Source: a virus
Length of the DNA stretch: 64,000 bases
Reading direction: 5' to 3' (one strand)
Virus record (IMG/VR): IMGVR_UViG_3300005563_000031
Coordinates: 32,001 to 96,000 of that record
In this document: positions 3,932-21,555 of the stretch, piece by piece
How positions within the stretch are numbered: the first letter of the stretch is position 1
Layout: every line of letters begins with the position of its first letter
Position numbers and translations under genes: made by a program
Notes under the pieces: generated by a model
What the model saw: only the letters and a program-made list of their open reading frames with translations
Told to the model about the DNA's origin: nothing
The model's database searches: none

Positions 3932-3960
3932 TTGCAATTAGGAAAATAGTCTATATACTA
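3932..3960 (+). promoter_or_regulatory. sigma70-type early promoter, copy 3
   Basis: TTGCAA-16 bp-TATACT with TAGTCTATATACTA. Confidence 0.75.
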
Positions 3961-10691: not shown

Positions 10692-11927
10692 ATGGAAAAA
10701 TGGGAACGGGAGGCTAAAACCTTCGCAAAATGGTGGCACACGGGACAGTACCGTAAGTATACCAACGACACCGTGCCGTACTACCTGCACTGCGGTGCGG
10801 TTGCGCGGTTGCTGAAAACACACGTACCTAGCGCGACGCGCGAAATGATTATCGCAGCGTGGTTACACGACACGCTCGAGGACACGGATGTTACGGCGCT
10901 TGAAATCTACAATACCTTTGGCTCCGTGGTGCTACAGCACGTCGAGGATCTTACCGAGCGTAAGTACCCCGGCTGCGGTCGACGCGAACGCAAAGAGCGG
11001 GAACTCGCACGACTTTCGCAAGTCTCGATTGGATCTAAAACTATTAAGTTAGCTGATCTACTCGACAATGCGAAGGATATACTCGAGAAGGACAAGGATT
11101 TTGCGGTGGTGTACTTGCGCGAGAAACGCGACTTACTTACCTACGCGCTAAAGGACGGCGATCCGGTGCTGTGGGCGTTGTGCGATCGCGTGGTGGAAGA
11201 CGGTTTAAAACTGTTGTCAGAATTTAAGGGGATTTCCAGCATGAAAACGGGCTTAACAGATATCACGTTAATTGTCGATAGATCCGGATCGATGAATAAG
11301 ATTTACAATGACACCATTGGCGGTCTCAATTCCTTTTTGCAATCGCAGCGCGCCGTGGAAGGCGAGGCAGTGTTTTCTGCCGTACAGTTTGATGATAAGT
11401 ACGAACAGGTCGTGACAGGCATCGACATACAACGCGTAACGAATTTCACGCCTGGGTATGACTTTATGCCACGCGGTTCCACAGCACTGTACGATGCGCT
11501 GGGACGCACTATTACGGCTATTGGCGCGCGGTTGAAGGCGTTGTCTGAAGAGGCGCGGCCTGAACGCGTAATGGTCGTGATCGTTACCGACGGCAAAGAG
11601 AACGCGAGCGAGGAATTTACCAAGAAGCAGGTGTTTGATATGATTAAACACCAAACCGACGTGTACAAGTGGGACTTTACCTACATCGGCGCAAACCAGG
11701 ATTCCATGCAGTCTGGAGCTGCTATCGGCATCGCTGCGAGCAAAACGATGGATTACTCGCATACAGGTGTAGGCGCACGGGGTGCCTTCGCTGCTGCATC
11801 TAACTACACGCACAGTTTCCGGGCCGCCCCAACCCGCGAGGCTGCGAGTGCGAGTGCATTCACGGCCGAGGATCGCAAAGCGGCGGCGGGCGATAGTGCG
11901 GGACTTAAGCCGGACAGTACCGTTTAA
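10692..11927 (+). CDS. RelA/SpoT-type HD hydrolase (small alarmone hydrolase-like) in frame with a vWA domain
   Basis: H.GQYRK...PY..H, AAWLHDTLEDT, IKLADLLDN; vWA MIDAS DRSGSM, PRGSTALYDA, VIVTDGKEN. Confidence 0.85.
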   Translation: MEKWEREAKTFAKWWHTGQYRKYTNDTVPYYLHCGAVARLLKTHVPSATREMIIAAWLHDTLEDTDVTALEIYNTFGSVVLQHVEDLTERKYPGCGRRERKERELARLSQVSIGSKTIKLADLLDNAKDILEKDKDFAVVYLREKRDLLTYALKDGDPVLWALCDRVVEDGLKLLSEFKGISSMKTGLTDITLIVDRSGSMNKIYNDTIGGLNSFLQSQRAVEGEAVFSAVQFDDKYEQVVTGIDIQRVTNFTPGYDFMPRGSTALYDALGRTITAIGARLKALSEEARPERVMVVIVTDGKENASEEFTKKQVFDMIKHQTDVYKWDFTYIGANQDSMQSGAAIGIAASKTMDYSHTGVGARGAFAAASNYTHSFRAAPTREAASASAFTAEDRKAAAGDSAGLKPDSTV

Positions 11928-11969: not shown

Positions 11970-13475
11970 ATGGTCACTGCAGTAAAGGTACAAGGTAATG
12001 CGCTCGTAGACGGCGACGGTACGCCGCTACAGCTGCGCGGTGTAAACTGTTCGGCGCTCGAATTCGTGGCGATCCAATACGCCTCCGCATCCCCCAAAAC
12101 CAACTTCGATAACTGGGGCGGCCAAAAGCCGAATCTCAGCGCTGTCAAGTCCTGGGGCGCCAACAGCATCCGTGTGCCTCTCAACGAGCAAAGTTACCTT
12201 GGACTCGTATGCACTGACCAAACCGGTGCGCAACTTTTGGCAGATCCGGGCGGTAACTACCGCAGTGCTGTGAAAGCGATCGTGGACAGTGCGACCGCAT
12301 TGGGGTTGGCGGTGATTTTGGACTTGCACAAGAACACCGCCAACTTCACACCGGCCGGCGCCAGTACGGCAGTGCCTGGCTTGTCCAACACGAGCGGACA
12401 GTCGGAGATGGCGGATGCCGACCACAGCTACGACTTCTGGTCGGCGGTTGCGAACGATTACAAAACCTACCCCAACGTGCTGTTTGACCTCTTTAACGAG
12501 CCGCATATTGACAATTTCCAAAATCCCAGCACTTTCTCACCAAACCCCGGCACTAGCTTGCCGGCAGGACTGAACACCGAAGCGGCATGGGCGTGGGCTG
12601 TGTGGCGCGACGGGGGCACCGGTAAGCTGATCTACGCCAACAACCAGACCTACTCGCAGAACTATGCCTCTGCCGGCATGCAGGCCATGTTGGATGCCGT
12701 GCGCGCGACCGGCGCCACGAACATATGCATGGCGGGCGGGGTATCGTGGGCGCAAGACCTTGCGTTGTGGACGCAGTTTTGTCCCATCGATCCGATCAAA
12801 CAACTGGCGTGCTCGTGGCATGCGTACCCGAGCCAACAGAACCCCGCCTACCCGAGCTATCCGCCGGGCACGTGGTGGGGGCAGCCGAAGGGCTCGTTTG
12901 ATTACGCAGCCGACATTCTCGCCGCCGGCTACCCGATCATTATCGGCGAAACAGGAGACGATCCCAACAACCAACTCATGCCTGTACTGTTGCCGTGGGC
13001 GGATGCGCACAAAGTATCTGTTACCGCGTGGACATGGGATGTGGGGTGGGGGAATGATTCACTCATTGCGGATGCGAGTGGCACACCTGTAAACACCGGC
13101 ATCGCGTACAAACAATGGCTTCAAACGCACACCTCCGGAGGTACTCCTGTGTCCACTACCCAAAATGCAGCCCTGTCGATCGCCTACAACAGCGTGGCCG
13201 GTTTCCCGGCGGGCAGCGTCGTTGACCACATCAACGTTGCACTTACGGCGAAAAACAACACCGCCAACACCCCGCCTGCCAAAAACGTCGCGCCCGGCAC
13301 TGCCAATGTGACCTTCACAGGACTCGCACCGGACACGTACCAAATTGCCGTGCAAGCAATGCCAGCGACGGGCAGCGGGTTTGGCACGCCGGCAAGCGGC
13401 TCGATTACCATTACGCAAGTCAACACCACTATCTCGTTGTCGCTGCCAAGCACTGTCACTGCTACACAGCCGTAA
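11970..13475 (+). CDS. glycoside hydrolase family 5 (cellulase-like) with C-terminal Ig/FN3-like domain
   Basis: LRGVN, WGANSIRVPL, VILDLH, catalytic FNEP and IIGETG, AWTW. Confidence 0.9.
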   Translation: MVTAVKVQGNALVDGDGTPLQLRGVNCSALEFVAIQYASASPKTNFDNWGGQKPNLSAVKSWGANSIRVPLNEQSYLGLVCTDQTGAQLLADPGGNYRSAVKAIVDSATALGLAVILDLHKNTANFTPAGASTAVPGLSNTSGQSEMADADHSYDFWSAVANDYKTYPNVLFDLFNEPHIDNFQNPSTFSPNPGTSLPAGLNTEAAWAWAVWRDGGTGKLIYANNQTYSQNYASAGMQAMLDAVRATGATNICMAGGVSWAQDLALWTQFCPIDPIKQLACSWHAYPSQQNPAYPSYPPGTWWGQPKGSFDYAADILAAGYPIIIGETGDDPNNQLMPVLLPWADAHKVSVTAWTWDVGWGNDSLIADASGTPVNTGIAYKQWLQTHTSGGTPVSTTQNAALSIAYNSVAGFPAGSVVDHINVALTAKNNTANTPPAKNVAPGTANVTFTGLAPDTYQIAVQAMPATGSGFGTPASGSITITQVNTTISLSLPSTVTATQP

Positions 13476-13738
13476 TGGGTCTTCGAACGACCGTTGCAGG
13501 ATTGGAACAGTGGGCAATCTTGCGCGACGTGTCACTGGATTTGCCCAAGCCGGGTGTGCTCAAAGCATGTCCGTTTTGCGGGCATCCGGCCGCATTTGCT
13601 GACAATAGCAAGCGCTACCAAGGACACGACAAGTACGTTATTGCCGTGTCCTGTTCCAACACGAGCTGCGGTGTGGTGACGCCGGGTCACTACACCACAC
13701 GAGAGACTGCGGCCGAGGCGTGGAACCGGCGCGTGTAA
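13475..13738 (+). CDS. Lar-family (restriction alleviation-like) zinc protein
   Basis: LKACPFCG...C..SCG...TRETAAEAWNRR. Confidence 0.75.
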   Translation: MGLRTTVAGLEQWAILRDVSLDLPKPGVLKACPFCGHPAAFADNSKRYQGHDKYVIAVSCSNTSCGVVTPGHYTTRETAAEAWNRRV

Positions 13739-13759
13739 CAATTCGGTGACATTTGGTGT

Positions 13760-13835
13760 TGGATCACCCGGATGGAATCGAACCATCATGTACGATGTTC
13801 AAAGCATCGTTGGGATACCAGTAACCCACAGGTGA
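13760..13835 (-). tRNA. tRNA-Gln(TTG)
   Basis: anticodon arm CGATG-CTTTGAA-CATCG; encoded CCA. Confidence 0.9.
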
Positions 13836-13974
13836 AAAATGAGTCGATTTGAACGTGTGGTGATCCAACTGCTGATCATTATCGCTAATAGGGTAGCGCG
13901 CAGTGCATCACCTGCAGACAGAATAAACATCGATCACGACGGGTGGCCGATGTACGGCGACAAACCCTTTTAAA

Positions 13975-14050
13975 TGGATCAGGCGGTTGGAATCGAACCA
14001 ACGTGAACTGCGTTCAGAGCGCAGTGGGGATGCCAGCAACCCACACCTGA
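13975..14050 (-). tRNA. tRNA-Gln(CTG)
   Basis: CTGCG-CTCTGAA-CGCAG; CCA. Confidence 0.9.
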
Positions 14051-14227
14051 GAATTTCTATGACAACAGAGAAAACTGCTATTTGCGGAGCGATCCGGCCT
14101 CAAGAAAAGCCTACGTGCCGACGTTCGCAAAAGATTGGCGGGCCGCGCTATGTTTGTGGACGCGAACCGAAGCACGAGGGGCCGTGCGGCTGCTGGCGGT
14201 TTTTGTCGCAGGTCGCTGCTGCGAAAT

Positions 14228-14299
14228 TGGCGGGAAGGTAAGGAGTTGCACCCTACTTTTGGGGTTTGGAGTCCCATAGCTCGCTCCGAGCACCGACCC
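14228..14299 (-). tRNA. tRNA-Trp(CCA), atypical
   Basis: loop CTCCAAA; two acceptor mismatches; TGCAA T-loop; CCA. Confidence 0.7.
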
Positions 14300-14307
14300 G
14301 TGAAACT

Positions 14308-14670
14308 ATGCCTATCTACGGTAGTCTAACACTACGCGCACGAATACTGGCAAACGATGAGCCGGCGTGGTTGAAAAAGCACGCACGCCGCGATTACATC
14401 GTGCAAGTACATCTTGCCACACCACGCTGGTACTCGCGTAAAGAAGTCGTACGGCTTAAGCAGAAGGCGCACGAGCTGTCGAAAGCGAAACGACGCAAGT
14501 ACGTACTGGACCACATCATCCCCCTCACACACAAGCGCGTATGCGGTTTAAACGTACACCACAATATGCAAATCATCGATGCCGGCACGAATGCGCGCAA
14601 ATCCAATCACTGGTGCGAGTGGCACGGGGAGTTATTCGCGGAACCTGAGCAGTTTCCACTGTTTCGATAG
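14308..14670 (+). CDS. HNH endonuclease, antisense within tRNA array
   Basis: LDHIIPL...VCGLNVHHNMQII...NARKSN. Confidence 0.85.
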   Translation: MPIYGSLTLRARILANDEPAWLKKHARRDYIVQVHLATPRWYSRKEVVRLKQKAHELSKAKRRKYVLDHIIPLTHKRVCGLNVHHNMQIIDAGTNARKSNHWCEWHGELFAEPEQFPLFR

Positions 14671-14758
14671 CGTGCCGGGCGCCGCGTGCCCATCGGTGCT
14701 AGGAAGTTTTGTGGCCCGCAAGCGGGGAAGATTCCTACGACGGGACGCCCATGCACTC

Positions 14759-14847
14759 TGGCGGAAGGCAGTGAACTCGAATCACAAACGCTTATCGCGT
14801 TCCATCCGCTTTCCAAGCGGCTCGAGGCCCTGCCTCGTTTACCTTCC
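14759..14847 (-). tRNA. tRNA-Ser(GGA)
   Basis: loop TTGGAAA, long V-arm, G73-CCA. Confidence 0.85.
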
Positions 14848-14852
14848 AATGT

Positions 14853-14941
14853 TGGCGGATACCGTAGGAGTCGAACCTACACGGCCCGTTAAGACCCTAA
14901 CACCGCTTTCAAGGCGGGCGAGCGCGCCAGTGCGGGTATCC
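14853..14941 (-). tRNA. tRNA-Ser(TGA), reduced D-arm
   Basis: loop CTTGAAA, long V-arm, G73-CCA. Confidence 0.75.
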
Positions 14942-15015
14942 GAAAAGTAGGTGAGGCCCGGTGCAGCGGATAGCACTTGGACAGGTGCGTCCACACCGGG
15001 GGTCACCGAGCAGCT

Positions 15016-15059
15016 GAACCGGAACTGCGCTTGTTCCTTACTGGCCTTTCGGCCGGTTC
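15016..15059 (-). ncRNA. three-way-junction motif, copy 1
   Basis: GAACC-GGCCGAAAGGCC-AGTAA-[GGAAC/GTTCC]-GGTTC. Confidence 0.6.
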
Positions 15060-15172
15060 GTTTGCGAGTATAAGGGCACTTGCGCGCGGGTGCAGTCGCT
15101 TACTGCACCTTGCGTCACGACCAACGCGCAGCAGGAGCGACACTGCCGCCATGGCGTCTAGCAAGTGTTTTC

Positions 15173-15260
15173 TGGCGGATGGCAATGGAGTCGAACCACA
15201 AGCGCTTGCGCACTCCATCTGTTTTCGAGGCAGTGCTGACACCGTGTCAGTTTACCATCC
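15173..15260 (-). tRNA. tRNA-Ser(CGA)
   Basis: loop CTCGAAA, V-arm, CCA. Confidence 0.85.
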
Positions 15261-15373
15261 GTAAAATCTAAGGCGGTTAGGTTTAAGTAGGGGGCAAACC
15301 CTTACCCGGCGCCGGGCCCAGCATCACCGCAAGCCCCTACCAGTCTTGACCAGCAAGTACCGGTAGGAATGTT

Positions 15374-15462
15374 TGGCGGAAAGCAGTGTACTCGAAACAC
15401 ACACCCGTTAGGATGCCCTCTGTTTAGCAAACAGGTACGAGCGCCTGCCCGTTTTACTTTCC
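15374..15462 (-). tRNA. tRNA-Ser(GCT)
   Basis: loop TTGCTAA, V-arm, CCA. Confidence 0.85.
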
Positions 15463-15468
15463 GTAAAT

Positions 15469-15547
15469 TGGTCCCCGCAGCAGCTTGGGGAGCTGCGACC
15501 GTCCGGTTAAAAGCCGGATGCTCTTCACCCGTGTGAGCTATACGAGG
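15469..15547 (-). tRNA. tRNA-Lys(TTT), non-canonical 6-nt T-loop
   Basis: TCCGG-CTTTTAA-CCGGA; T-arm GCAGC-TCCCAA-GCTGC; CCA. Confidence 0.75.
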
Positions 15548-15553
15548 AATGTT

Positions 15554-15629
15554 TGGTGCTCAGTGATGGAGTTGAACCATCTATCTCCGCGTTACGAATG
15601 CGGCGCATCGCCGGCAATGCTTACCGAGC
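15554..15629 (-). tRNA. tRNA-Thr(CGT)
   Basis: loop TTCGTAA; CCA. Confidence 0.85.
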
Positions 15630-15743
15630 TTATCGGAATAAGAAGACTGTACCAAACATGCTCGCACCATCGGCAGCAAAACACCGCGCGCCATCCTCGT
15701 AGTCGTTTGCCGCACTGTCTGCAGTTCATGTTGGAATTATACA

Positions 15744-15818
15744 TGGAGCCCCACGTTGGACTTGCGCCAACCCTCGCTACTTACAAGGCAGCTACACCGC
15801 TATCTGTGTTTGTAGGGC
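15744..15818 (-). tRNA. tRNA-Thr(TGT)
   Basis: GCTGC-CTTGTAA-GTAGC; CCA. Confidence 0.85.
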
Positions 15819-15883
15819 GAAAAGTACCGCCGAGCCCCTGTGCACACGCAGGTATTGGAAAGGCCCGGCGGATTTTGCAATTA

Positions 15884-15924
15884 GAACCAGACGCTGGCGC
15901 CTTTACTGGCCTTTCGGCCGGTTC
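15884..15924 (-). ncRNA. three-way-junction motif, copy 2
   Basis: 22 nt identical to copy 1; different but paired third stem AGGCG/CGTCT. Confidence 0.6.
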
Positions 15925-15943
15925 AATATGCATACTAACATGT

Positions 15944-16019
15944 TGGTGCCTCACCGACGAATTGCACGTCGCGCCTCATCTTTACCAAAGATGCGTTCCG
16001 CTCGCAGAACTTGAGAGGC
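15944..16019 (-). tRNA. tRNA-Thr(GGT)
   Basis: CATCT-TTGGTAA-AGATG; CCA. Confidence 0.85.
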
Positions 16020-16026
16020 AGTAAAT

Positions 16027-16100
16027 TGGCCTCCACGGTTGGACTCGAACCAACAACAGCAAGCCTTCGGAGGGCTCGCGCCGTATCCGACGGCGTGGAG
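16027..16100 (-). tRNA. tRNA-Arg(CCG), short D-arm
   Basis: loop CTCCGAA; CCA. Confidence 0.75.
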
Positions 16101-16107
16101 TTTAAAG

Positions 16108-16181
16108 TGGCACCCCCGGTTGGACTCGAACCAACATATCTGCCGTTCGTAGCGGCGGATCCTTGTTCCGAAGGCAGGGGC
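16108..16181 (-). tRNA. tRNA-Arg(ACG), short D-arm
   Basis: loop CTACGAA; CCA. Confidence 0.75.
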
Positions 16182-16266
16182 GTAGAAAACTGTCCGGCGG
16201 CAGTAGGCGCGAGTACGGCTTGCGCTTTCGCCGCGCACTTACCTTAAAGGCCTGCCGGTATGGCCG

Positions 16267-16437
16267 TTACACCGGTTTGTAAAGGGCTTGGTAGTAAAAT
16301 AAATGGTTTAGCGTGTCTGAACACAGGCGCTCGCACACTGCCACACCACCGGCCAATAACCACCCTTTGTTTAGGTAGTCAGTGACTTCGTTATTAAAGT
16401 ACTGCAAGTTTGTGTTACTTACTACGATGTATTTCAA
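16267..16437 (-). CDS. DUF1737-like small protein (56 aa, not in ORF track)
   Basis: TTG start; MKYIVVS...EVTDYLNKGWLLAGGVAV...YYQALYK. Confidence 0.7.
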   Translation of the reverse strand: MKYIVVSNTNLQYFNNEVTDYLNKGWLLAGGVAVCERLCSDTLNHLFYYQALYKPV

Positions 16438-16440
16438 TGT

Positions 16441-16536
16441 TGGTACTCGATGTAGGATTTGAACCTAACCCGTTGCAGCCAGTCCGACCGCTCTCGCACG
16501 CTTATAAGGCGCACCCGCACACCAGTGCTATCGAGT
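16441..16536 (-). tRNA. tRNA with TAT (Ile) anticodon and long variable arm
   Basis: TGCGC-CTTATAA-GCGTG; ~29-nt variable region; D tetraloop; A73-CCA. Confidence 0.7.
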
Positions 16537-16635
16537 ATTGCTCCTTTCCGAGGGGCGGCGGGCAGTGTAGTTAGCGACGCTACACTGAGTTGGGAGCTAC
16601 CCAACCAACCCCGCAGGCCCCTCGTACTTCTTTGT

Positions 16636-16710
16636 TGCGGTAGCTGGACTTGCACCAGCCTTAAATCGGCTTATGAAACCGTGGCGAAACTACCTTCGAC
16701 CATATACCGC
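16636..16710 (-). tRNA. tRNA-Met/Ile2(CAT), no encoded CCA
   Basis: loop TTCATAA; TGCAA T-loop; ends A-ACA. Confidence 0.65.
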
Positions 16711-16883
16711 AAAATTGTGCCCGCTTCGCTTTTCATTTCGTGGCAACGGACTAACACGCGGTGGCACCTATCAGCTCCCTACATGCATGCAACGCATTTG
16801 GGCGGGGATGGAGGCAGGGGTTAGGGAATGCGCATGTCTAGAATACGCCAATACACCTAAAGCCGTACCAACACCCCCATACC

Positions 16884-16958
16884 TGGTAGCGGGAGAGGGA
16901 TTCGAACCCCCGACCTTCTGGTTATGAGCCAGACGAGCTACCTCTGCTCTATCCCGCA
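16884..16958 (-). tRNA. initiator-like tRNA-fMet(CAT)
   Basis: 1:72 mismatch, TCTGG-CTCATAA-CCAGA, CCA. Confidence 0.85.
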
Positions 16959-17128
16959 TCAAACAATGCCGCGTTCCTCTTATATACCGGATACGCGGCC
17001 AACCCGGTATTGCAATTCGAGGAGGTGCTGTTGGGACTATCCTACAGGAGAACAAAGGACAGACCGGACTTATGGACGCTACGTGTCCCAACAGCACCGA
17101 CAACCGAACTATACAGCGAACTTTGAAT

Positions 17129-17203
17129 TGGTGCCTCGAGAAGTGCTCGCACCTTCGTATCTGGGTTTTCAGGCCAGCGCTACTCTGTCTCAGCTATCGA
17201 GGC
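17129..17203 (-). tRNA. tRNA-Phe(GAA)
   Basis: loop CTGAAAA; CCA. Confidence 0.8.
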
Positions 17204-17209
17204 AAATAC

Positions 17210-17295
17210 TGGTCCTCACGGCTGGACTTGCACCAGCACGCCGGTTAAGGCACAGCGTTCTCAACACTGCGTGTCTGCTGTTTCACCACGCGAGG
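17210..17295 (-). tRNA. tRNA-Leu(GAG)
   Basis: loop TTGAGAA; V-arm; A73-CCA. Confidence 0.85.
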
Positions 17296-17302
17296 AATAG
17301 TT

Positions 17303-17551
17303 TCAACGGATCGTTTCAATAGTCTTACCATCCTCGTTCATAATGTAGGCGACGTTGTAGGAACAGGACTGGTCCATTCCCACTGTTACCTCTGTAGTTT
17401 CACCCGGTGCGTCGCCGCACTGTATAACCGCGCACAAGTTTTCCTTGTACGTTACGTGGACGGCTTTCGCCTCACGCACTGATATCGCTTCTGTGTATGA
17501 GGGCTTAGCGGGCGCTTCTGGCCCGTACTTATAGAATTTTACTGTCAACAT
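17303..17551 (-). CDS. hypothetical protein inside tRNA array
   Basis: 82 aa; C-terminal AYIMNEDGKTIETI phage motif. Confidence 0.7.
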   Translation of the reverse strand: MLTVKFYKYGPEAPAKPSYTEAISVREAKAVHVTYKENLCAVIQCGDAPGETTEVTVGMDQSCSYNVAYIMNEDGKTIETIR

Positions 17552-17581
17552 AGTCTACTCGTCCTACTACTGCTAAGAAAC

Positions 17582-17665
17582 TGGTACCTCTGGTGAGAGT
17601 TGCACTCACACACCTTGCGGCGCCGGAATTTGAAGCCGGTGCGTCTGCTGTTCCGCCACAGAGGC
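17582..17665 (-). tRNA. tRNA-Leu(CAA)
   Basis: loop TTCAAAT; V-arm; CCA. Confidence 0.85.
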
Positions 17666-17671
17666 AAAAGT

Positions 17672-17748
17672 TGGTATCCCCGGCGGGAGTTGCACCCGCA
17701 GTTGAACGGATTTTAAGTCCGCTGTGTCTGCTATTCCACCACGAGGAT
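17672..17748 (-). tRNA. tRNA-Leu(TAA), short variable loop
   Basis: GCGGA-CTTAAAA-TCCGT; CCA. Confidence 0.8.
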
Positions 17749-17751
17749 GAA

Positions 17752-17822
17752 TGGGCACCCACGGTTGGAGTCGAACCAACGCTGGTAGCTTAGGAGGCCA
17801 CTTTCGTTCCGCCGACGTGGGT
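17752..17822 (-). tRNA. tRNA-Arg(CCT), short D-arm
   Basis: loop CTCCTAA; ends G-CCCA. Confidence 0.7.
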
Positions 17823-17823
17823 A

Positions 17824-17985
17824 TCACAGATGAACAGTACCTGCGACTACGGTAATGGCGAGGATAAGGCAGATCAGCAGCACCGCAATGTGCAGCAGTG
17901 GGCCCGGTTTGCCTATCATCGACATGATCGTGATGATCGCAGCGGCGATCAAAAATACGAGAACGAGAATTGCAGCAGCACTCAT
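17824..17985 (-). CDS. small two-TM membrane protein (53 aa)
   Basis: AAGGAG RBS; MSAAAILVLVFLIAAAII... Confidence 0.65.
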   Translation of the reverse strand: MSAAAILVLVFLIAAAIITIMSMIGKPGPLLHIAVLLICLILAITVVAGTVHL

Positions 17986-18043
17986 GTTGGAAACTCCTTT
18001 TCTAACACGGGTGGGCGGTAGCAAGTAACGCTCCCGACACAGC

Positions 18044-18116
18044 TGGCACCCTCGGTTGGAGTCGAACCAACAGTCTGCGGCTTAGAAGGCGCGCTACCGA
18101 TCCGGCCGGCGAGGGC
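18044..18116 (-). tRNA. tRNA-Arg(TCT), short D-arm
   Basis: loop CTTCTAA; CCA. Confidence 0.7.
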
Positions 18117-18122
18117 GAAGGG

Positions 18123-18194
18123 TGGAGCGGAAAATGGGAGTCGAACCCATCAGCGGCGTCGTTGGCAACGATACCTCACACCATGTGCATCCGC
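18123..18194 (-). tRNA. tRNA-Gly(GCC), short D-arm
   Basis: loop TTGCCAA; U73-CCA. Confidence 0.75.
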
Positions 18195-18202
18195 ATGTTC
18201 AG

Positions 18203-18340
18203 TTCTTTCGTCCGTCCCACTGTTGCATTATGGGCAACCACCCGAGAGGATTTGCCGCTACCTCTGACATCTCCCACTTAAAGGAGGGAGCGCTCTGGTG
18301 CTCTGAGCTACGAGTGTTATCAACAGTCGCCACGAAAGAA
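18203..18340 (-). ncRNA. tRNA-like RNA with enlarged anticodon and T loops on an extended stem
   Basis: core 18239-18316; outer stems TTCTTTCGT/ACGAAAGAA and ACTGTTG/CAACAGT; no CCA. Confidence 0.6.
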
Positions 18341-18342
18341 TT

Positions 18343-18418
18343 TGGTGCATGCTGTTGGATTCGAACCAACTGCCTCCCGGTTATCAGCCGGGTGCGCATC
18401 CGTATGTGCCTCGCATGC
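18343..18418 (-). tRNA. tRNA-Ile(GAT)
   Basis: CCCGG-CTGATAA-CCGGG; CCA. Confidence 0.9.
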
Positions 18419-18535
18419 GAAATAGATGTGGGTATTTGTCCGGCACCCACCGAGCCGTGCGGCTATTGCAGCGTAACCGCGACACCTCCAGCGCTTGCAT
18501 TGGCACTGGACCGGGCCGTTAAAGGTGTAGTGAAG

Positions 18536-18623
18536 TAGGATGTTTGGATTTGCACCAAGACCTCTGTTATTCCGCACGTCTGCGGATTCGACAGTGCTCT
18601 TCTATGACTGAGCTAACACCCTA
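18536..18623 (-). ncRNA. anticodon-less tRNA-like RNA
   Basis: acceptor, D-arm GCTC/GAGC and T-arm present; anticodon loop replaced by internal loop plus TCCGCA-GACG-TGCGGA; no CCA. Confidence 0.65.
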
Positions 18624-18645
18624 CATATTCACTATACCTTGAAGT

Positions 18646-18720
18646 TGGTCGGAGTAGTAGGAATCGAACCTACCTTGTCGTGCTCCCAAAGCACGCGATC
18701 AGCCACTGACCCACACTCCG
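18646..18720 (-). tRNA. tRNA-Pro(TGG)
   Basis: CGTGC-TTTGGGA-GCACG; CCA. Confidence 0.9.
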
Positions 18721-18777
18721 ATGGCGAGTGTCTCTCCGCTCCTGTCACGCCTGGATCGCCCGGCGTTCGGCATTGGC

Positions 18778-18855
18778 TGGTGCGGGTAGCAGGATTTGAA
18801 CCTACGGCCCCGTGCGCCCGAGGCACGTGCTCTGACCAGACTGAGCTATACCCAC
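18778..18855 (-). tRNA. tRNA-Pro(CGG)
   Basis: CGTGC-CTCGGGC-GCACG; CCA. Confidence 0.85.
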
Positions 18856-18865
18856 ATGTTAGAAT

Positions 18866-18942
18866 TGGAGCACCCGGCCGGACTTGCACCGACGATTTTA
18901 ACGCTTTGCAGGCGCCTGCATTTGCTGCTCTGCCACGGGTGC
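18866..18942 (-). tRNA. tRNA-Cys(GCA)
   Basis: loop CTGCAAA; U73-CCA. Confidence 0.85.
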
Positions 18943-18946
18943 GTGT

Positions 18947-19020
18947 TGGAGGGTCGTAATGGAGTCGAACCATTTATGGAGTCCGGTCACAGCGGAGTCC
19001 GGCTACCGAGCCAACGGCCC
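18947..19020 (-). tRNA. tRNA-His(GTG), U73 and no G-1
   Basis: loop CTGTGAC; CCA. Confidence 0.75.
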
Positions 19021-19116
19021 ATTGTTTGTGCCTTCCCGCGCACGGCTTGCGGCCGGTCGATCGCGTGGCGCGAGTCACGGCGCACTCCGAGGTGCGCTGG
19101 GCTTGATCGACAAAGT

Positions 19117-19204
19117 TGGTACCTCTGGAGGGAATTGCACCCCCATGCCGTTTTACGGGCGCTGCGGTCTGAACGCAGTGTGTCTTCTGTTTCACCACAG
19201 AGGC
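19117..19204 (-). tRNA. tRNA-Leu(CAG)
   Basis: CTGCG-TTCAGAC-CGCAG; V-arm; CCA. Confidence 0.85.
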
Positions 19205-19346
19205 AAAATGAGCATTAGGACAGTGCGCTGGTGCCGCGTTGGCATTCGCGCAAACCTCCGTTAGACAGCGCTATCTAACATCATCGATCCTGCTTTATAC
19301 AGCTTGCATAGCCCCACTCGATATGGGACACGGCACTGTCCTAATT

Positions 19347-19421
19347 TGGTAGACCGTACGGGATTCGAACCCGCCTAACATGCTTGAAAGGCACGTTGCA
19401 TCACCGAGACGCATACGGTCC
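19347..19421 (-). tRNA. tRNA-Glu(TTC)
   Basis: loop CTTTCAA; CCA. Confidence 0.8.
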
Positions 19422-19596
19422 GTAAAATTTAAGTGGCTCTGGCGCATAGGGGTACTCGTGTGAGGCGCATGCGCCACTGGCGGAGACAGGTACCTGGCAC
19501 GACTTACGCACCGTTGCTGCGTCGTAACCTGCGCTGGCTTGCCAGGCGAGAGCGGTCTGTGCGGCAGAGCTACTAAGTATACCGCACGACAAACAC

Positions 19597-19674
19597 TGGT
19601 AGACGTGACGAGACTCTAACTCGTTAGGCTACGGTTGAGAACCGCACTGCGCGAGACACTTTGCATTCACGTCC
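19597..19674 (-). tRNA. tRNA-Glu(CTC)
   Basis: TGCGG-TTCTCAA-CCGTA; CCA. Confidence 0.8.
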
Positions 19675-19682
19675 ATAAAAAT

Positions 19683-19754
19683 TGGTGGAGCTGTCGGGAG
19701 TTGAACCCGCAGGGTTTCCTTGCAAGGGAGACCCGTTGCCCGCAACACAACCCC
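19683..19754 (-). tRNA. tRNA-Ala(TGC), short D-arm
   Basis: G3:U70, loop CTTGCAA, A73-CCA. Confidence 0.8.
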
Positions 19755-19856
19755 GTGGTTCTTTGGTCTAGCCCAACATCTGACGGCTGGGCAGGCGCAC
19801 ATAACAGCAACGTCACCGGTAATTAACTGCTACATGTTGATCGCTTTTCGACTTAC

Positions 19857-19932
19857 TGGTAGGCCGCCAGGGATTCGAACCCTGGACCAACTGGTTAAGA
19901 GCCAGCTGCTCTTGCCGCTGAGCTAGCGACCT
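19857..19932 (-). tRNA. tRNA-Lys(CTT)
   Basis: GCTGG-CTCTTAA-CCAGT; canonical; CCA. Confidence 0.92.
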
Positions 19933-20030
19933 ATAAAGTTACGCTTCCGGTCATCTGCGCCGAATATCCCGTGGGCTAGTACCCACATGCTACAGGACAT
20001 GGACGGGCGTACAGAGCCGGACTTGCGTTC

Positions 20031-20121
20031 TGGTGCGTCGCGGATGGAATCGAACCTCGTGCCCTAAAGGGACCTGGTTTACAGCCAGGCGAGCGGCCAC
20101 CACTCCTTACTTGCGCAACGC
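20031..20121 (-). tRNA. tRNA-Tyr(GTA)
   Basis: CCTGG-CTGTAAA-CCAGG; V-arm; CCA. Confidence 0.85.
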
Positions 20122-20126
20122 ATGGT

Positions 20127-20198
20127 TGGTACCCGATGTGAGGATTGAACTCACTCCACCAACTTTGTAGGAGTCGGCGCCGTCCCAACGGTCCGGGC
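20127..20198 (-). tRNA. tRNA-Val(TAC), short D-arm, C33
   Basis: CGACT-CCTACAA-AGTTG; CCA. Confidence 0.7.
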
Positions 20199-20432
20199 AT
20201 AAACAAAAAGGATGACAATAGGCGTGCATCAGACGCCTCGTTTTACGTCACGGCTCGCGCCGCTTGGCTAGCTGCTCGCAGGTGGTCCGTAGACCACCAT
20301 TTTCGTCACCGCTTCTACCAGCGGCTCCTCGAACGTCGTTAGGCCGACTACCCAGCCAATTCTCGTATCCTCAAAAATCGTTGACGACCTATTTTTTATC
20401 GTGGTCAGCCGTCAGTGTTTTCCAGTCCTTTT

Positions 20433-20504
20433 TGGCGCCTCCAACGGGACTCGAACCCGTCACCCACTCGATAGACAGTCGAGTTTCACCCCAGGTGTAG
20501 AGGC
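20433..20504 (-). tRNA. tRNA-Asp(GTC), short D-arm
   Basis: CTCGA-CTGTCTA-TCGAG; G73-CCA. Confidence 0.75.
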
Positions 20505-20520
20505 AGGTTCTAACACTTAG

Positions 20521-20594
20521 CTGTAGGCCTGGGGCTCGAACCCAGCGCATCTCCGTTAACAGCGGAGCCTACACGCCCGGTGCAGTTGCCTACA
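20521..20594 (-). tRNA. tRNA-Asn(GTT), no CCA, flanks extend the acceptor stem
   Basis: CTCCG-CTGTTAA-CGGAG; G73; flanks TCTAACACTT/AAGTGTTAGA (20509-20607). Confidence 0.8.
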
Positions 20595-20609
20595 GCAAAG
20601 TGTTAGATT

Positions 20610-20683
20610 TGGAGCGGACGGTGGGAATCAAACCCACCTCATTGCGTTGGAAGCGCAAGGCCCAGTCACTAGACCACGCCCGC
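20610..20683 (-). tRNA. tRNA-Gly(TCC), first gene of array
   Basis: TTGCG-CTTCCAA-CGCAA; U73-CCA. Confidence 0.9.
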
Positions 20684-20705
20684 TCAAACCTAAATGTCAA
20701 CCGAA

Positions 20706-20718
20706 TTGTTAAAGAACG
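20706..20718 (-). promoter_or_regulatory. rrn-type boxA antitermination element
   Basis: CGTTCTTTAACAA fits GYTCTTTAANA, ~22 nt before first tRNA. Confidence 0.7.
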
Positions 20719-20930
20719 TCCGGTGATTTAGTTTGGGGGTGTTGGAAGGAGAGCGGTTGCTTTCCTTTTTGGCCCCCGTCCTGCACCGGGGGCAGGAGGG
20801 ATTAGAGCTTGGTACCTTCGAGTCGGGGCGCTGTTGGCATAATATTCCAACTATCGCGCCCAAACGTCGCCGCGACGACACATTGCTGCGCCGGATAGGC
20901 TAGACGTGAAGGTACTAAGGATCTAAACAT

Positions 20931-20966
20931 GTCTATATACTAAATTCGATTCGATACACATTGCAA
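20931..20966 (-). promoter_or_regulatory. promoter of tRNA array
   Basis: TTGCAA-18 bp-TAGTAT; contains the early-promoter box GTCTATATACTA in inverted orientation. Confidence 0.6.
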
Positions 20967-21156
20967 GTACTTTCGTAAAAATGCCGGGAGTGGTCAGCTC
21001 CCGGCGAAAGTTACGGACGTATAGCGCAGTGGAAAACCTCGAGAACAACAACACCGAAACTCGAGGCCCATGGTCTGTGCGCGTCAACATCCGGCAGTCG
21101 ACACCTACAAGGGAGGTCGTAAGTGTTTTACCGACTGCATTACAACTATACGCGCG

Positions 21157-21456
21157 TCACCAGTAGTAAACGTGTGGCCGGCGGTAGCTCGGGAAATTAA
21201 GGCTGTCCGGATCGCGACCCAGCTCGATAAGCCGTTCAAGTTGATTTGACCGGATACGCGCGGGGCGAATGTGCATCGTGCGATTCCACTCGCCGGAGGG
21301 CTCGGTCATAATTTGCAAACGCTTGTTGGGGTGTTGCTCATAGCGATACACATCCGGACGATACCAACACGGACGGTAGTAGCCGTAAGCAATGAGAATA
21401 CGCACACGATGTGCACGTGCAACGCGCTGCTGCCAGCGCCGTAAGGATCGCTTCAT
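21157..21456 (-). CDS. small Arg-rich hypothetical protein
   Basis: 99 aa; GGGAG RBS inside a hairpin. Confidence 0.65.
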   Translation of the reverse strand: MKRSLRRWQQRVARAHRVRILIAYGYYRPCWYRPDVYRYEQHPNKRLQIMTEPSGEWNRTMHIRPARIRSNQLERLIELGRDPDSLNFPSYRRPHVYYW

Positions 21457-21555
21457 GTCGAAAGACTCCCGTTAGGTTATCTAATTCGACATGAAGTTCT
21501 CCTCATAGTGGTTCAAAGGTCGCAGTTTCAACGAACGCCTGCTAAGCGCAATCAA

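Follow-up and report, generated by a model that had tools for sequence, protein, structure and literature searches.

Folded non-tRNA RNAs have been known within phage tRNA clusters since T4. The stable RNAs of that phage designated species 1 and 2 (rnaC and rnaD) are small folded molecules that lie between tRNA genes on the same strand; tRNA-processing enzymes are presumed to release them, and no function is known for them. In E. coli 3'ETS-leuZ and the metZWV spacer are functional RNAs that are released as a by-product of tRNA processing. The put RNAs of phage HK022 represent a two-copy, promoter-proximal system in which the sequences differ and the structure is shared, each RNA comprising two stem-loops in about 70 nt. 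Current research treats phage tRNA arrays themselves both as a means of countering host defences that target tRNAs and as a codon supply, and their spacers are usually ignored. Phage tRNA regions also contain theta (minimal HDV-like) ribozymes, small elements to which a role in tRNA maturation is ascribed (Kienbeck et al. 2024, PMC10879173).

Here we describe a three-way junction (3WJ) that occurs twice in the tRNA array of a soil phage and is an uncatalogued addition to the loose class of non-tRNA RNAs in phage tRNA clusters. Like T4 species 1 and 2, the 3WJ is located within the tRNA cluster and on the tRNA strand. It is smaller than the T4 RNAs (41-44 nt, or about 105-125 nt with the hairpin that follows it), occurs twice and displays no similarity to cultured phages, including T4-like phages. 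HK022 put RNA and the element described here are both two-copy folded phage RNAs, whereas the former consists of two stem-loops and the latter of a 3WJ.

The IMG/VR record IMGVR_UViG_3300005563_000031 comprises 105,784 bp and is rated complete; bases 32001-96000 of the record, a stretch of 64,000 nt, are the window analysed here and all coordinates refer to it. An HK97-type portal and tail genes identify a tailed phage, which is present in public sequencing runs from rhizosphere and soil metagenomes. The tRNA array contains ~36 genes on the minus strand, from ~20683 to 13760, with an encoded CCA in nearly all. ARAGORN called 23-28 of these genes (23 in the default run), and our own cloverleaf scan added others, among them tRNA-Thr(UGU). 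The tRNA-Thr(UGU) and tRNA-Ser(UGA) genes, located directly downstream of the two 3WJ units, were both missed by the ARAGORN default run. At least nine tRNAs of the array (Leu-CAG, Leu-UAA, Leu-CAA, Leu-GAG, Cys, Thr-GGU, Thr-UGU, the second CAU tRNA and Phe) contain the T-loops UGCAANU or CGCAAGU, in which G is found in place of the near-universal U55 (pseudouridine 55).

At its head, again on the minus strand, the array displays a terminator, the promoter TTGCAA-18-TAGTAT and the boxA-like CGTTCTTTAACAATT; two stretches, 20706-20720 and 20937-20971, contain the promoter and boxA-like element between them. An ATG is located 6 nt past the -10 box of this promoter, and CGTTCTTTAACAATT stands immediately ahead of the first tRNA. 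The promoter and boxA point to rrn-style antitermination of what would be one long array transcript. Sigma-70-like promoters are depleted within the array, with 0 found between 13500 and 21500 compared with 4.1 +/- 1.9 in shuffles. A single long array transcript is therefore favoured, because internal promoters are depleted and the head carries a good promoter and a boxA-like element.

A three-way junction that occurs twice

The 22-mer GAACCGGCCGAAAGGCCAGTAA is found twice on the minus strand, which is the sense of the tRNAs, at 15924-15903 and 15059-15038. No further copy was detected in the window with up to three mismatches (0 expected by chance), and the 22-mer is absent from the rest of the 105.8-kb genome, also when 2-3 mismatches are allowed. 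In each case the repeat is followed by a stem-loop of differing sequence and then by GGTTC, which completes an element of 41 nt in copy A (15884-15924, minus strand) and 44 nt in copy B (15016-15059, minus strand). The minimum-free-energy fold is the same 3WJ in both copies, with z values of -2.5 and -3.5, respectively, and the 3WJ persists in both when the whole spacers are folded. Helix P1 is formed by GAACC and GGUUC (15924-15920 with 15888-15884 in copy A, and 15059-15055 with 15020-15016 in copy B). Stem 2, GGCC-GAAA-GGCC, follows P1 without a linker (15919-15908 and 15054-15043), and the junction strand AGUAA (15907-15903 and 15042-15038) leads into stem 3, which is closed by a CCAG loop in copy A (15902-15889) and an AAGCGCA loop in copy B (15037-15021) and passes linker-free into the 3' strand of P1. 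The unpaired conserved nucleotides are the nine of GAAA and AGUAA, while the two other junction strands are of 0 nt.

The two copies differ in stem 3, in which AGGCG pairs with CGUCU in copy A, and GGAAC with GUUCC in copy B. Both partners differ in three of the pairs, a single partner differs in a fourth (G.U in copy A, A-U in copy B) and the fifth is unchanged, a relationship that is obscured in a MAFFT alignment of the two copies, which puts stem 3 out of register. Among same-length inserts drawn from random sequence or natural windows, 0.7-1.7% form a flush 5-bp stem by chance; for both copies together the chance is about 1 in 10,000. The 3WJ does not form in the plus-strand transcript, where the stem-2 hairpin grows to seven pairs and competes with P1 and where the G.U pair of copy A becomes a C.A mismatch. 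The lack of the junction on the plus strand, together with the copy A C.A mismatch there, therefore indicates that the element is an RNA of tRNA sense. The initial annotation had described a motif at 15016-15059 and 15884-15924 of the minus strand, with 22 identical nucleotides, a third stem that differs in sequence yet pairs, and a GC-rich hairpin and then a tRNA after each copy. The sequence scan and the folds bear out this description throughout: GAACCGGCCGAAAGGCCAGTAA is exact in both copies, stem 3 is compensatory, and the hairpins at 15871-15827 and 15007-14950 lead to Thr-UGU and Ser-UGA, respectively.

The 3WJ could not be assigned to a described motif. Readings as an integron attC core, a K-turn or, for AGUA/GAA, a loop-E/sarcin-ricin element do not fit when judged on sequence by itself. 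A tRNA or tRNA-like domain (tmRNA TLD or YrlA), which would show a T-arm with a UUCRANY-type loop, a D-loop partner and an acceptor end, was rejected, as neither ARAGORN nor Rfam calls one, the stem-3 loops are CCAG and AAGCGCA, and no CCA is present. A cmscan of 13500-21000 returned tRNA-type and chance matches only, with no Rfam match at the motif at E<=10, and a whole-genome descriptor search for similar GNRA-capped 3WJs recovered the two copies together with chance-level G.U-rich matches.

Searches for homologues gave a similar picture. No homologue was found among cultured phages by blastn of either the 1.5-kb region or the motif; a single match at E=1 in a T4-like phage was rejected, being an intercistronic hairpin between neck and tail genes. 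In IMG/VR the matches to 17-mer, 16-mer and GNRA-variant patterns were terminator-like or coding, and none closes to a 3WJ or lies in a tRNA array. The same was observed with a stem-2-degenerate pattern, where none of the matches listed closes into a 3WJ or is in a tRNA array. A 19-mer search of JGI/ENA metagenome contigs yielded three chance matches and no motif, while the 14 matches to an 18-mer in GTDB genomes are at about the estimated chance level and none is closed. Relatives of the HD-domain protein and GH5 cellulase encoded next to the array occur at loci that lack a tRNA array, and the closest of these, L009, lacks the motif. The portal aligned with 80 IMG/VR loci, the best at 61% identity, and no tRNA array was found in five whole IMG/VR records (three portal relatives, two at 58-61% and one at 43%, and two GH5 relatives). 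Portal identity to cultured relatives is at most 41%, and closer portal relatives are recorded in Logan assemblies only (P0121 at 96%, and P0122 at 77% on a 104-kb contig); contigs of about 92 kb encode the more distant portal relatives P0130/P0137, at 57-59%. Within the collections scanned, the 3WJ thus appears confined to one soil-phage lineage. The initial annotation had named a lack of other occurrences as counting against its reading, and such a lack was half borne out: apart from one near-identical relative, described below, the motif is absent from every public collection scanned.

The larger module and its variation in a soil relative

Both copies are embedded in a module with a common order, in which an outer helix (P0) encloses the 3WJ and is followed by a long GC-rich hairpin, the octamer UACUUUUC and the tRNA. 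P0 is a GCA/UGC helix of 3-4 bp that closes the 3WJ across a symmetric internal loop in both copies. In unit A (15876-15932, minus strand) UGCA at 15932-15929 pairs with UGCA at 15879-15876 across a 4x4 loop, and in unit B (15010-15065, minus strand) GCA at 15065-15063 pairs with UGC at 15012-15010 across a 3x3 loop. The GC-rich hairpins, identified by folding at 15827-15871 in unit A (45 nt) and 14950-15007 in unit B (about 57 nt), start 2-4 nt past P0; they are long and irregular, and their sequences are unrelated between the two units. The octamer UACUUUUC is identical in both units, at 15819-15826 and 14942-14949, has no third occurrence in the window, and abuts the first base of tRNA-Thr(UGU) (15744-15818, with the unusual T-loop CGCAAGU) and tRNA-Ser(UGA) (14853-14941), both of which are on the minus strand and have an encoded CCA. 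The octamer is the exact complement of GAAA plus AGUA, and AGUAA complements the common leader UUAC(U); this complementarity is possibly due to chance.

The identity between units A and B amounts to 22 + 5 + 8 nt, separated by unalignable sequence, and the identity blocks begin and end at helix boundaries. Such a pattern is characteristic of constrained RNA with one variable peripheral stem, and is not that expected of recent duplication or gene conversion.

The soil metagenome run X5 contains a relative that is ~95% identical across the tRNAs, on a contig that spans copy A. Module A of this relative differs at five places and the variant refolds to the same structure. Thus, G15900>A converts the stem 3 G.U pair to A-U, C15930>U keeps the C-G pair of P0 as U.G, U15880>C is an internal-loop change, and the unit A hairpin displays one substitution and a 1-nt deletion, both in loops. 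Seven changes are present in tRNA-Thr(GGU), which is adjacent to copy A. As judged by the refolded variant, the X5 changes in copy A are structure-neutral and the fold is retained. The 226-nt copy-B spacer (14947-15172), conversely, is replaced in X5 by 102 letters that cannot be aligned at 80%, and therefore one copy is either dispensable or diverged beyond recognition. Two other differences were observed in this relative: a 143-nt insertion at 14849-14852, between Ser(GGA) and Ser(UGA), and the replacement of 132 nt including tRNA-Ser(GCU) (15337-15468) by 135 nt. With the tRNAs conserved and whole spacers swapped, the spacers evolve by cassette-like replacement. As no homologue was found outside the lineage, the evidence for covariation comes from the two paralogues and a single close relative.

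A proposed processed spacer domain and alternative explanations

The 3WJ fold is real and probably functional. The initial annotation had regarded it as a functional fold, and selection on the fold is supported by the compensatory stem 3, the identity blocks at helix boundaries, the strand asymmetry and the neutral X5 changes; the three functions that it offered (protein-binding site, processing signal or small ribozyme) are not told apart by these data. Our leading explanation, which is tentative, is that the 3WJ is a co-transcribed domain of the tRNA-precursor spacer with a specific recognition surface, released together with the hairpin. The repeat, fold, strand and conservation pattern are established; that the element is co-transcribed, released and stable, and what kind of partner it would have, we infer. 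In this model the long precursor RNA of the tRNA array would contain the two copies as paralogous domains of tRNA sense. The invariant half of the element (the CC:GG end of P1, the 4-bp GAAA-capped stem and AGUAA) would provide a sequence-specific surface, either as an internal tertiary lock of the GNRA/A-minor type or as a binding site for a protein or RNase, with stem 3 acting as a structural strut only. The 3WJ and GC hairpin would fill the spacer as two closed domains, leaving exactly eight single-stranded U-rich nucleotides for RNase P. Cleavage by RNase P at the 5' end of the tRNA, combined with a cut in the AU-rich trailer of the upstream tRNA, would free a stable spacer RNA, roughly 105-125 nt in length and folded at either end.

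The possibility of a tertiary lock is informed by junctions stabilized through A-minor contacts, in which an adenine-bearing loop on a short helix beside the junction docks on a receptor helix containing G:C, with parallel stacking. GNAA loops prefer a CC:GG helix receptor, and such loop-helix contacts fix junction stacking (Geary, Chworos and Jaeger 2011, PMC3035441). The 3WJ resembles these junctions in possessing a short GNAA-capped helix at the junction and CC:GG in the adjoining helix, and the GAAA loop, CC:GG and A-rich junction strand appear to supply the sequence prerequisites for an A-minor contact. The invariance of the loop, the junction and the end of P1 would be explained by the preference of GNAA loops for a CC:GG receptor. 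In the 3WJ, however, CC:GG comprises the two junction-proximal pairs, while the expected reach of a loop on a 4-bp stem is about 4-6 pairs, and the Y(UAA)R triloop form is absent, UAA being flanked by G and R. Several points weigh against the processed-domain explanation. No homologue was found outside the lineage, the X5 relative lacks the copy-B spacer, so at least one copy appears dispensable, and generic 'insulator' folding alone does not explain 22 invariant nucleotides. The latter would be accounted for by a putative tertiary lock or protein site. In addition, P0 of copy A, as seen in its minimum-free-energy fold, takes in the final base of a -10-like hexamer (see below) and is upstream of any start that this hexamer could set, so that a start site there remains a less probable alternative.

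A different view of the same pattern is that the units are a neutral relic, in which a spacer module that was duplicated long ago has since decayed save for patches kept by chance or by short gene conversion, the fold mattering as generic spacer structure only. This is unlikely but retains an appreciable share of the probability because of the spacer turnover seen in the X5 relative, where the copy-B spacer is wholly replaced and spacers turn over by replacement. There are, in addition, two copies only, in one lineage, and many other spacers are equally structured without being repeated. Three identity patches at exact helix boundaries and a compensated stem 3, however, are not expected from decay or gene conversion.

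The sequence upstream of the junctions suggests a further alternative. A TAnnnT hexamer is located exactly 7 nt upstream of each copy (TAGTAT at 15932-15937 before copy A, and TATACT at 15067-15072 before copy B, both on the minus strand), and could represent an internal -10-only promoter that would make the 3WJ the triphosphorylated 5' end of a secondary transcript. In that position the junction would confer stability on the RNA or, like HK022 put RNA, affect RNA polymerase, before being removed with the leader by RNase P. The same two hexamers serve as -10 boxes in the best two promoters of the window, TAGTAT in the one at the array head (TTGCAA-18-TAGTAT) and TATACT in the one at 3932 (TTGCAA-16-TATACT). 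The X5 relative retains TAGTAT without change, and the TGT that precedes this hexamer gives copy A the extended -10 form TGnTAGTAT. Against this, a -35 is lacking at both copies, the DNA upstream of them is rich in GC, in contrast to that of real-looking promoters, and when -35 and -10 hexamers 16-18 nt apart are required for a sigma-70 promoter only the -10-like hexamers are found at the two copies. The promoter scan calls none in 13500-21500, promoters being depleted in the array, and a single boxA-headed operon has no need of one. The conserved P0 would, moreover, lie upstream of the proposed start. An internal promoter is rather improbable.

It is very unlikely that the element is a new minimal RNA class specific to phage tRNA operons, with the 22 invariant nucleotides as its active surface; such a class would comprise either a tiny self-cleaving or RNase-guiding element or a put-like RNA acting on RNA polymerase at internal starts. 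The arrangement of junction, GC hairpin, UACUUUUC (5 U in 8) and gene resembles an aptamer and terminator platform, which would be consistent with a cis-regulatory switch; as a small sensor or antitermination element, the 3WJ would then govern whether transcription passes the hairpin and U-rich tract and enters the tRNA. An intrinsic terminator, or a stand-alone small-RNA gene ending in one, would display a compact GC stem with a 3-8 nt loop and a U tract directly after it. The hairpins, however, are long, irregular and interrupted and are not called by the terminator scan. In addition, the 5 U in 8 match the U-rich leaders that are general to the array tRNAs, no alternative pairing between 3WJ and hairpin was seen, and no riboswitch family was matched in Rfam. 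A switch is accordingly very unlikely.

A constraint at the level of protein or DNA was rejected as likewise very unlikely. Both copies are in the same frame of minus-strand ORFs, of 57 and 79 aa, and could encode a shared peptide, EPAERPV(K/R), while GGCC-N4-GGCC is a dyad that could serve as a protein-binding DNA site. The 22 nucleotides, however, display zero synonymous differences, although the codons next to them show no relationship; the peptide is found at the N terminus of one ORF but at the C terminus of the other; and the listed ORFs start inside the upstream tRNA gene, one also ending inside the downstream tRNA gene. The X5 change is non-synonymous (Ala>Thr) yet repairs the G.U pair, and a site on double-stranded DNA leaves the compensated stem 3 and strand asymmetry unexplained.

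With respect to catalysis, the hammerhead is a three-way junction whose junction strands contain CUGANGA, GAAA and the cleavage-site UH. It was rejected here, as the junction strands of the 3WJ are of 0 nt, 0 nt and AGUAA and no Rfam match was obtained at E<=10. Twister, twister-sister, pistol, hatchet and hairpin ribozymes were similarly rejected, giving no match at the motif by cmscan at E<=10, and no HDV match was found at that threshold. HDV-like and theta ribozymes are built on a nested double pseudoknot, carry their catalytic C in J4/2 and cleave within about 5 nt of a tRNA 3' end (PMC10879173). The 3WJ lacks the nested double pseudoknot and any HDV-type match in Rfam, and the copies are 19 and 113 nt, rather than within 5 nt, from the ends of the upstream tRNAs; theta ribozymes are from gut phages, whereas this phage is from soil or rhizosphere and its tRNAs have an encoded CCA. 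Although a small conserved junction within a tRNA operon is the context in which theta ribozymes occur in gut phages (PMC10879173), a new minimal ribozyme whose self-cleavage would assist in cutting the tRNA precursor, one of the functions first proposed, is the least probable of these explanations, because there are too few conserved unpaired bases (the nine of GAAA and AGUAA), no known core and the wrong distance compared with theta ribozymes.

If the 3WJ, read as a processed spacer domain or otherwise, has a partner or activity, it would offer a handle on the punctuation and processing of long tRNA precursors, and would add to the unexplained non-tRNA RNAs of phage tRNA clusters. Its general importance is limited, as the 3WJ is confined to one lineage on present evidence.

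Spacer design across the array and neighbouring genes

All spacers longer than 40 nt (n=17) were folded. In nine of the 17 z was <= -2.4 relative to shuffles, and in 11 a closed structured domain is separated from the tRNA by no more than 7-9 unpaired U-rich nucleotides, a regularity that favours the processed-domain explanation. The last leader bases are U-rich throughout the array (UUUUAC, AUUUAC, ACUUUU and similar), and UACUUUUC is therefore a special case of the general leader. The GC hairpin, likewise, is a special case of the general spacer design. Such a design would leave RNase P a short single-stranded leader and prevent mispairing between spacer and tRNA. The duplication and the 22 invariant nucleotides set the 3WJ apart from the other structured spacers. 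The array indicates that spacers can hold selected, sequence-specific folds within a regular design of closed domains and an about 8-nt leader.

Several individual spacers contain additional features. A second closed multi-helix domain is located at 15077-15167 (minus strand), in the same spacer as copy B and upstream of it, where an outer helix, CACUUGC/GCAAGUG, surrounds three hairpins; the domain is not repeated elsewhere. The 227-nt spacer at 18419-18645 (minus strand) folds into a long stalk with a cloverleaf-like top (z = -3.7), while z is +0.6 for the spacer at 18221-18342 (minus strand); the elements in these two spacers may be Y-RNA/YrlA-like. The spacer after tRNA-Thr(UGU), at 15592-15744 (minus strand), contains a TATAAT box 6 nt ahead of an ATG. 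The corresponding ORF reads MNCRQCGKRLRGWRAVFCCRWCEHVW..., a basic CxxC...CCxxC zinc-ribbon-like peptide, and enters the next tRNA gene, where its stop codon is in the anticodon loop of that gene. It may be spurious or a leaderless mini-gene.

The array is adjoined by two plus-strand genes, encoding an HD-domain and vWA-like protein (10692-11927) and a GH5 cellulase-family enzyme (11970-13475). A homologue of the cellulase in the viral contig L009 displays 68% identity and has no tRNAs within 10 kb on either side. Many further homologues are ~50% identical, and the few with a source name derive from Gammaproteobacteria; these homologues hint at host range or at a depolymerase role for the enzyme.
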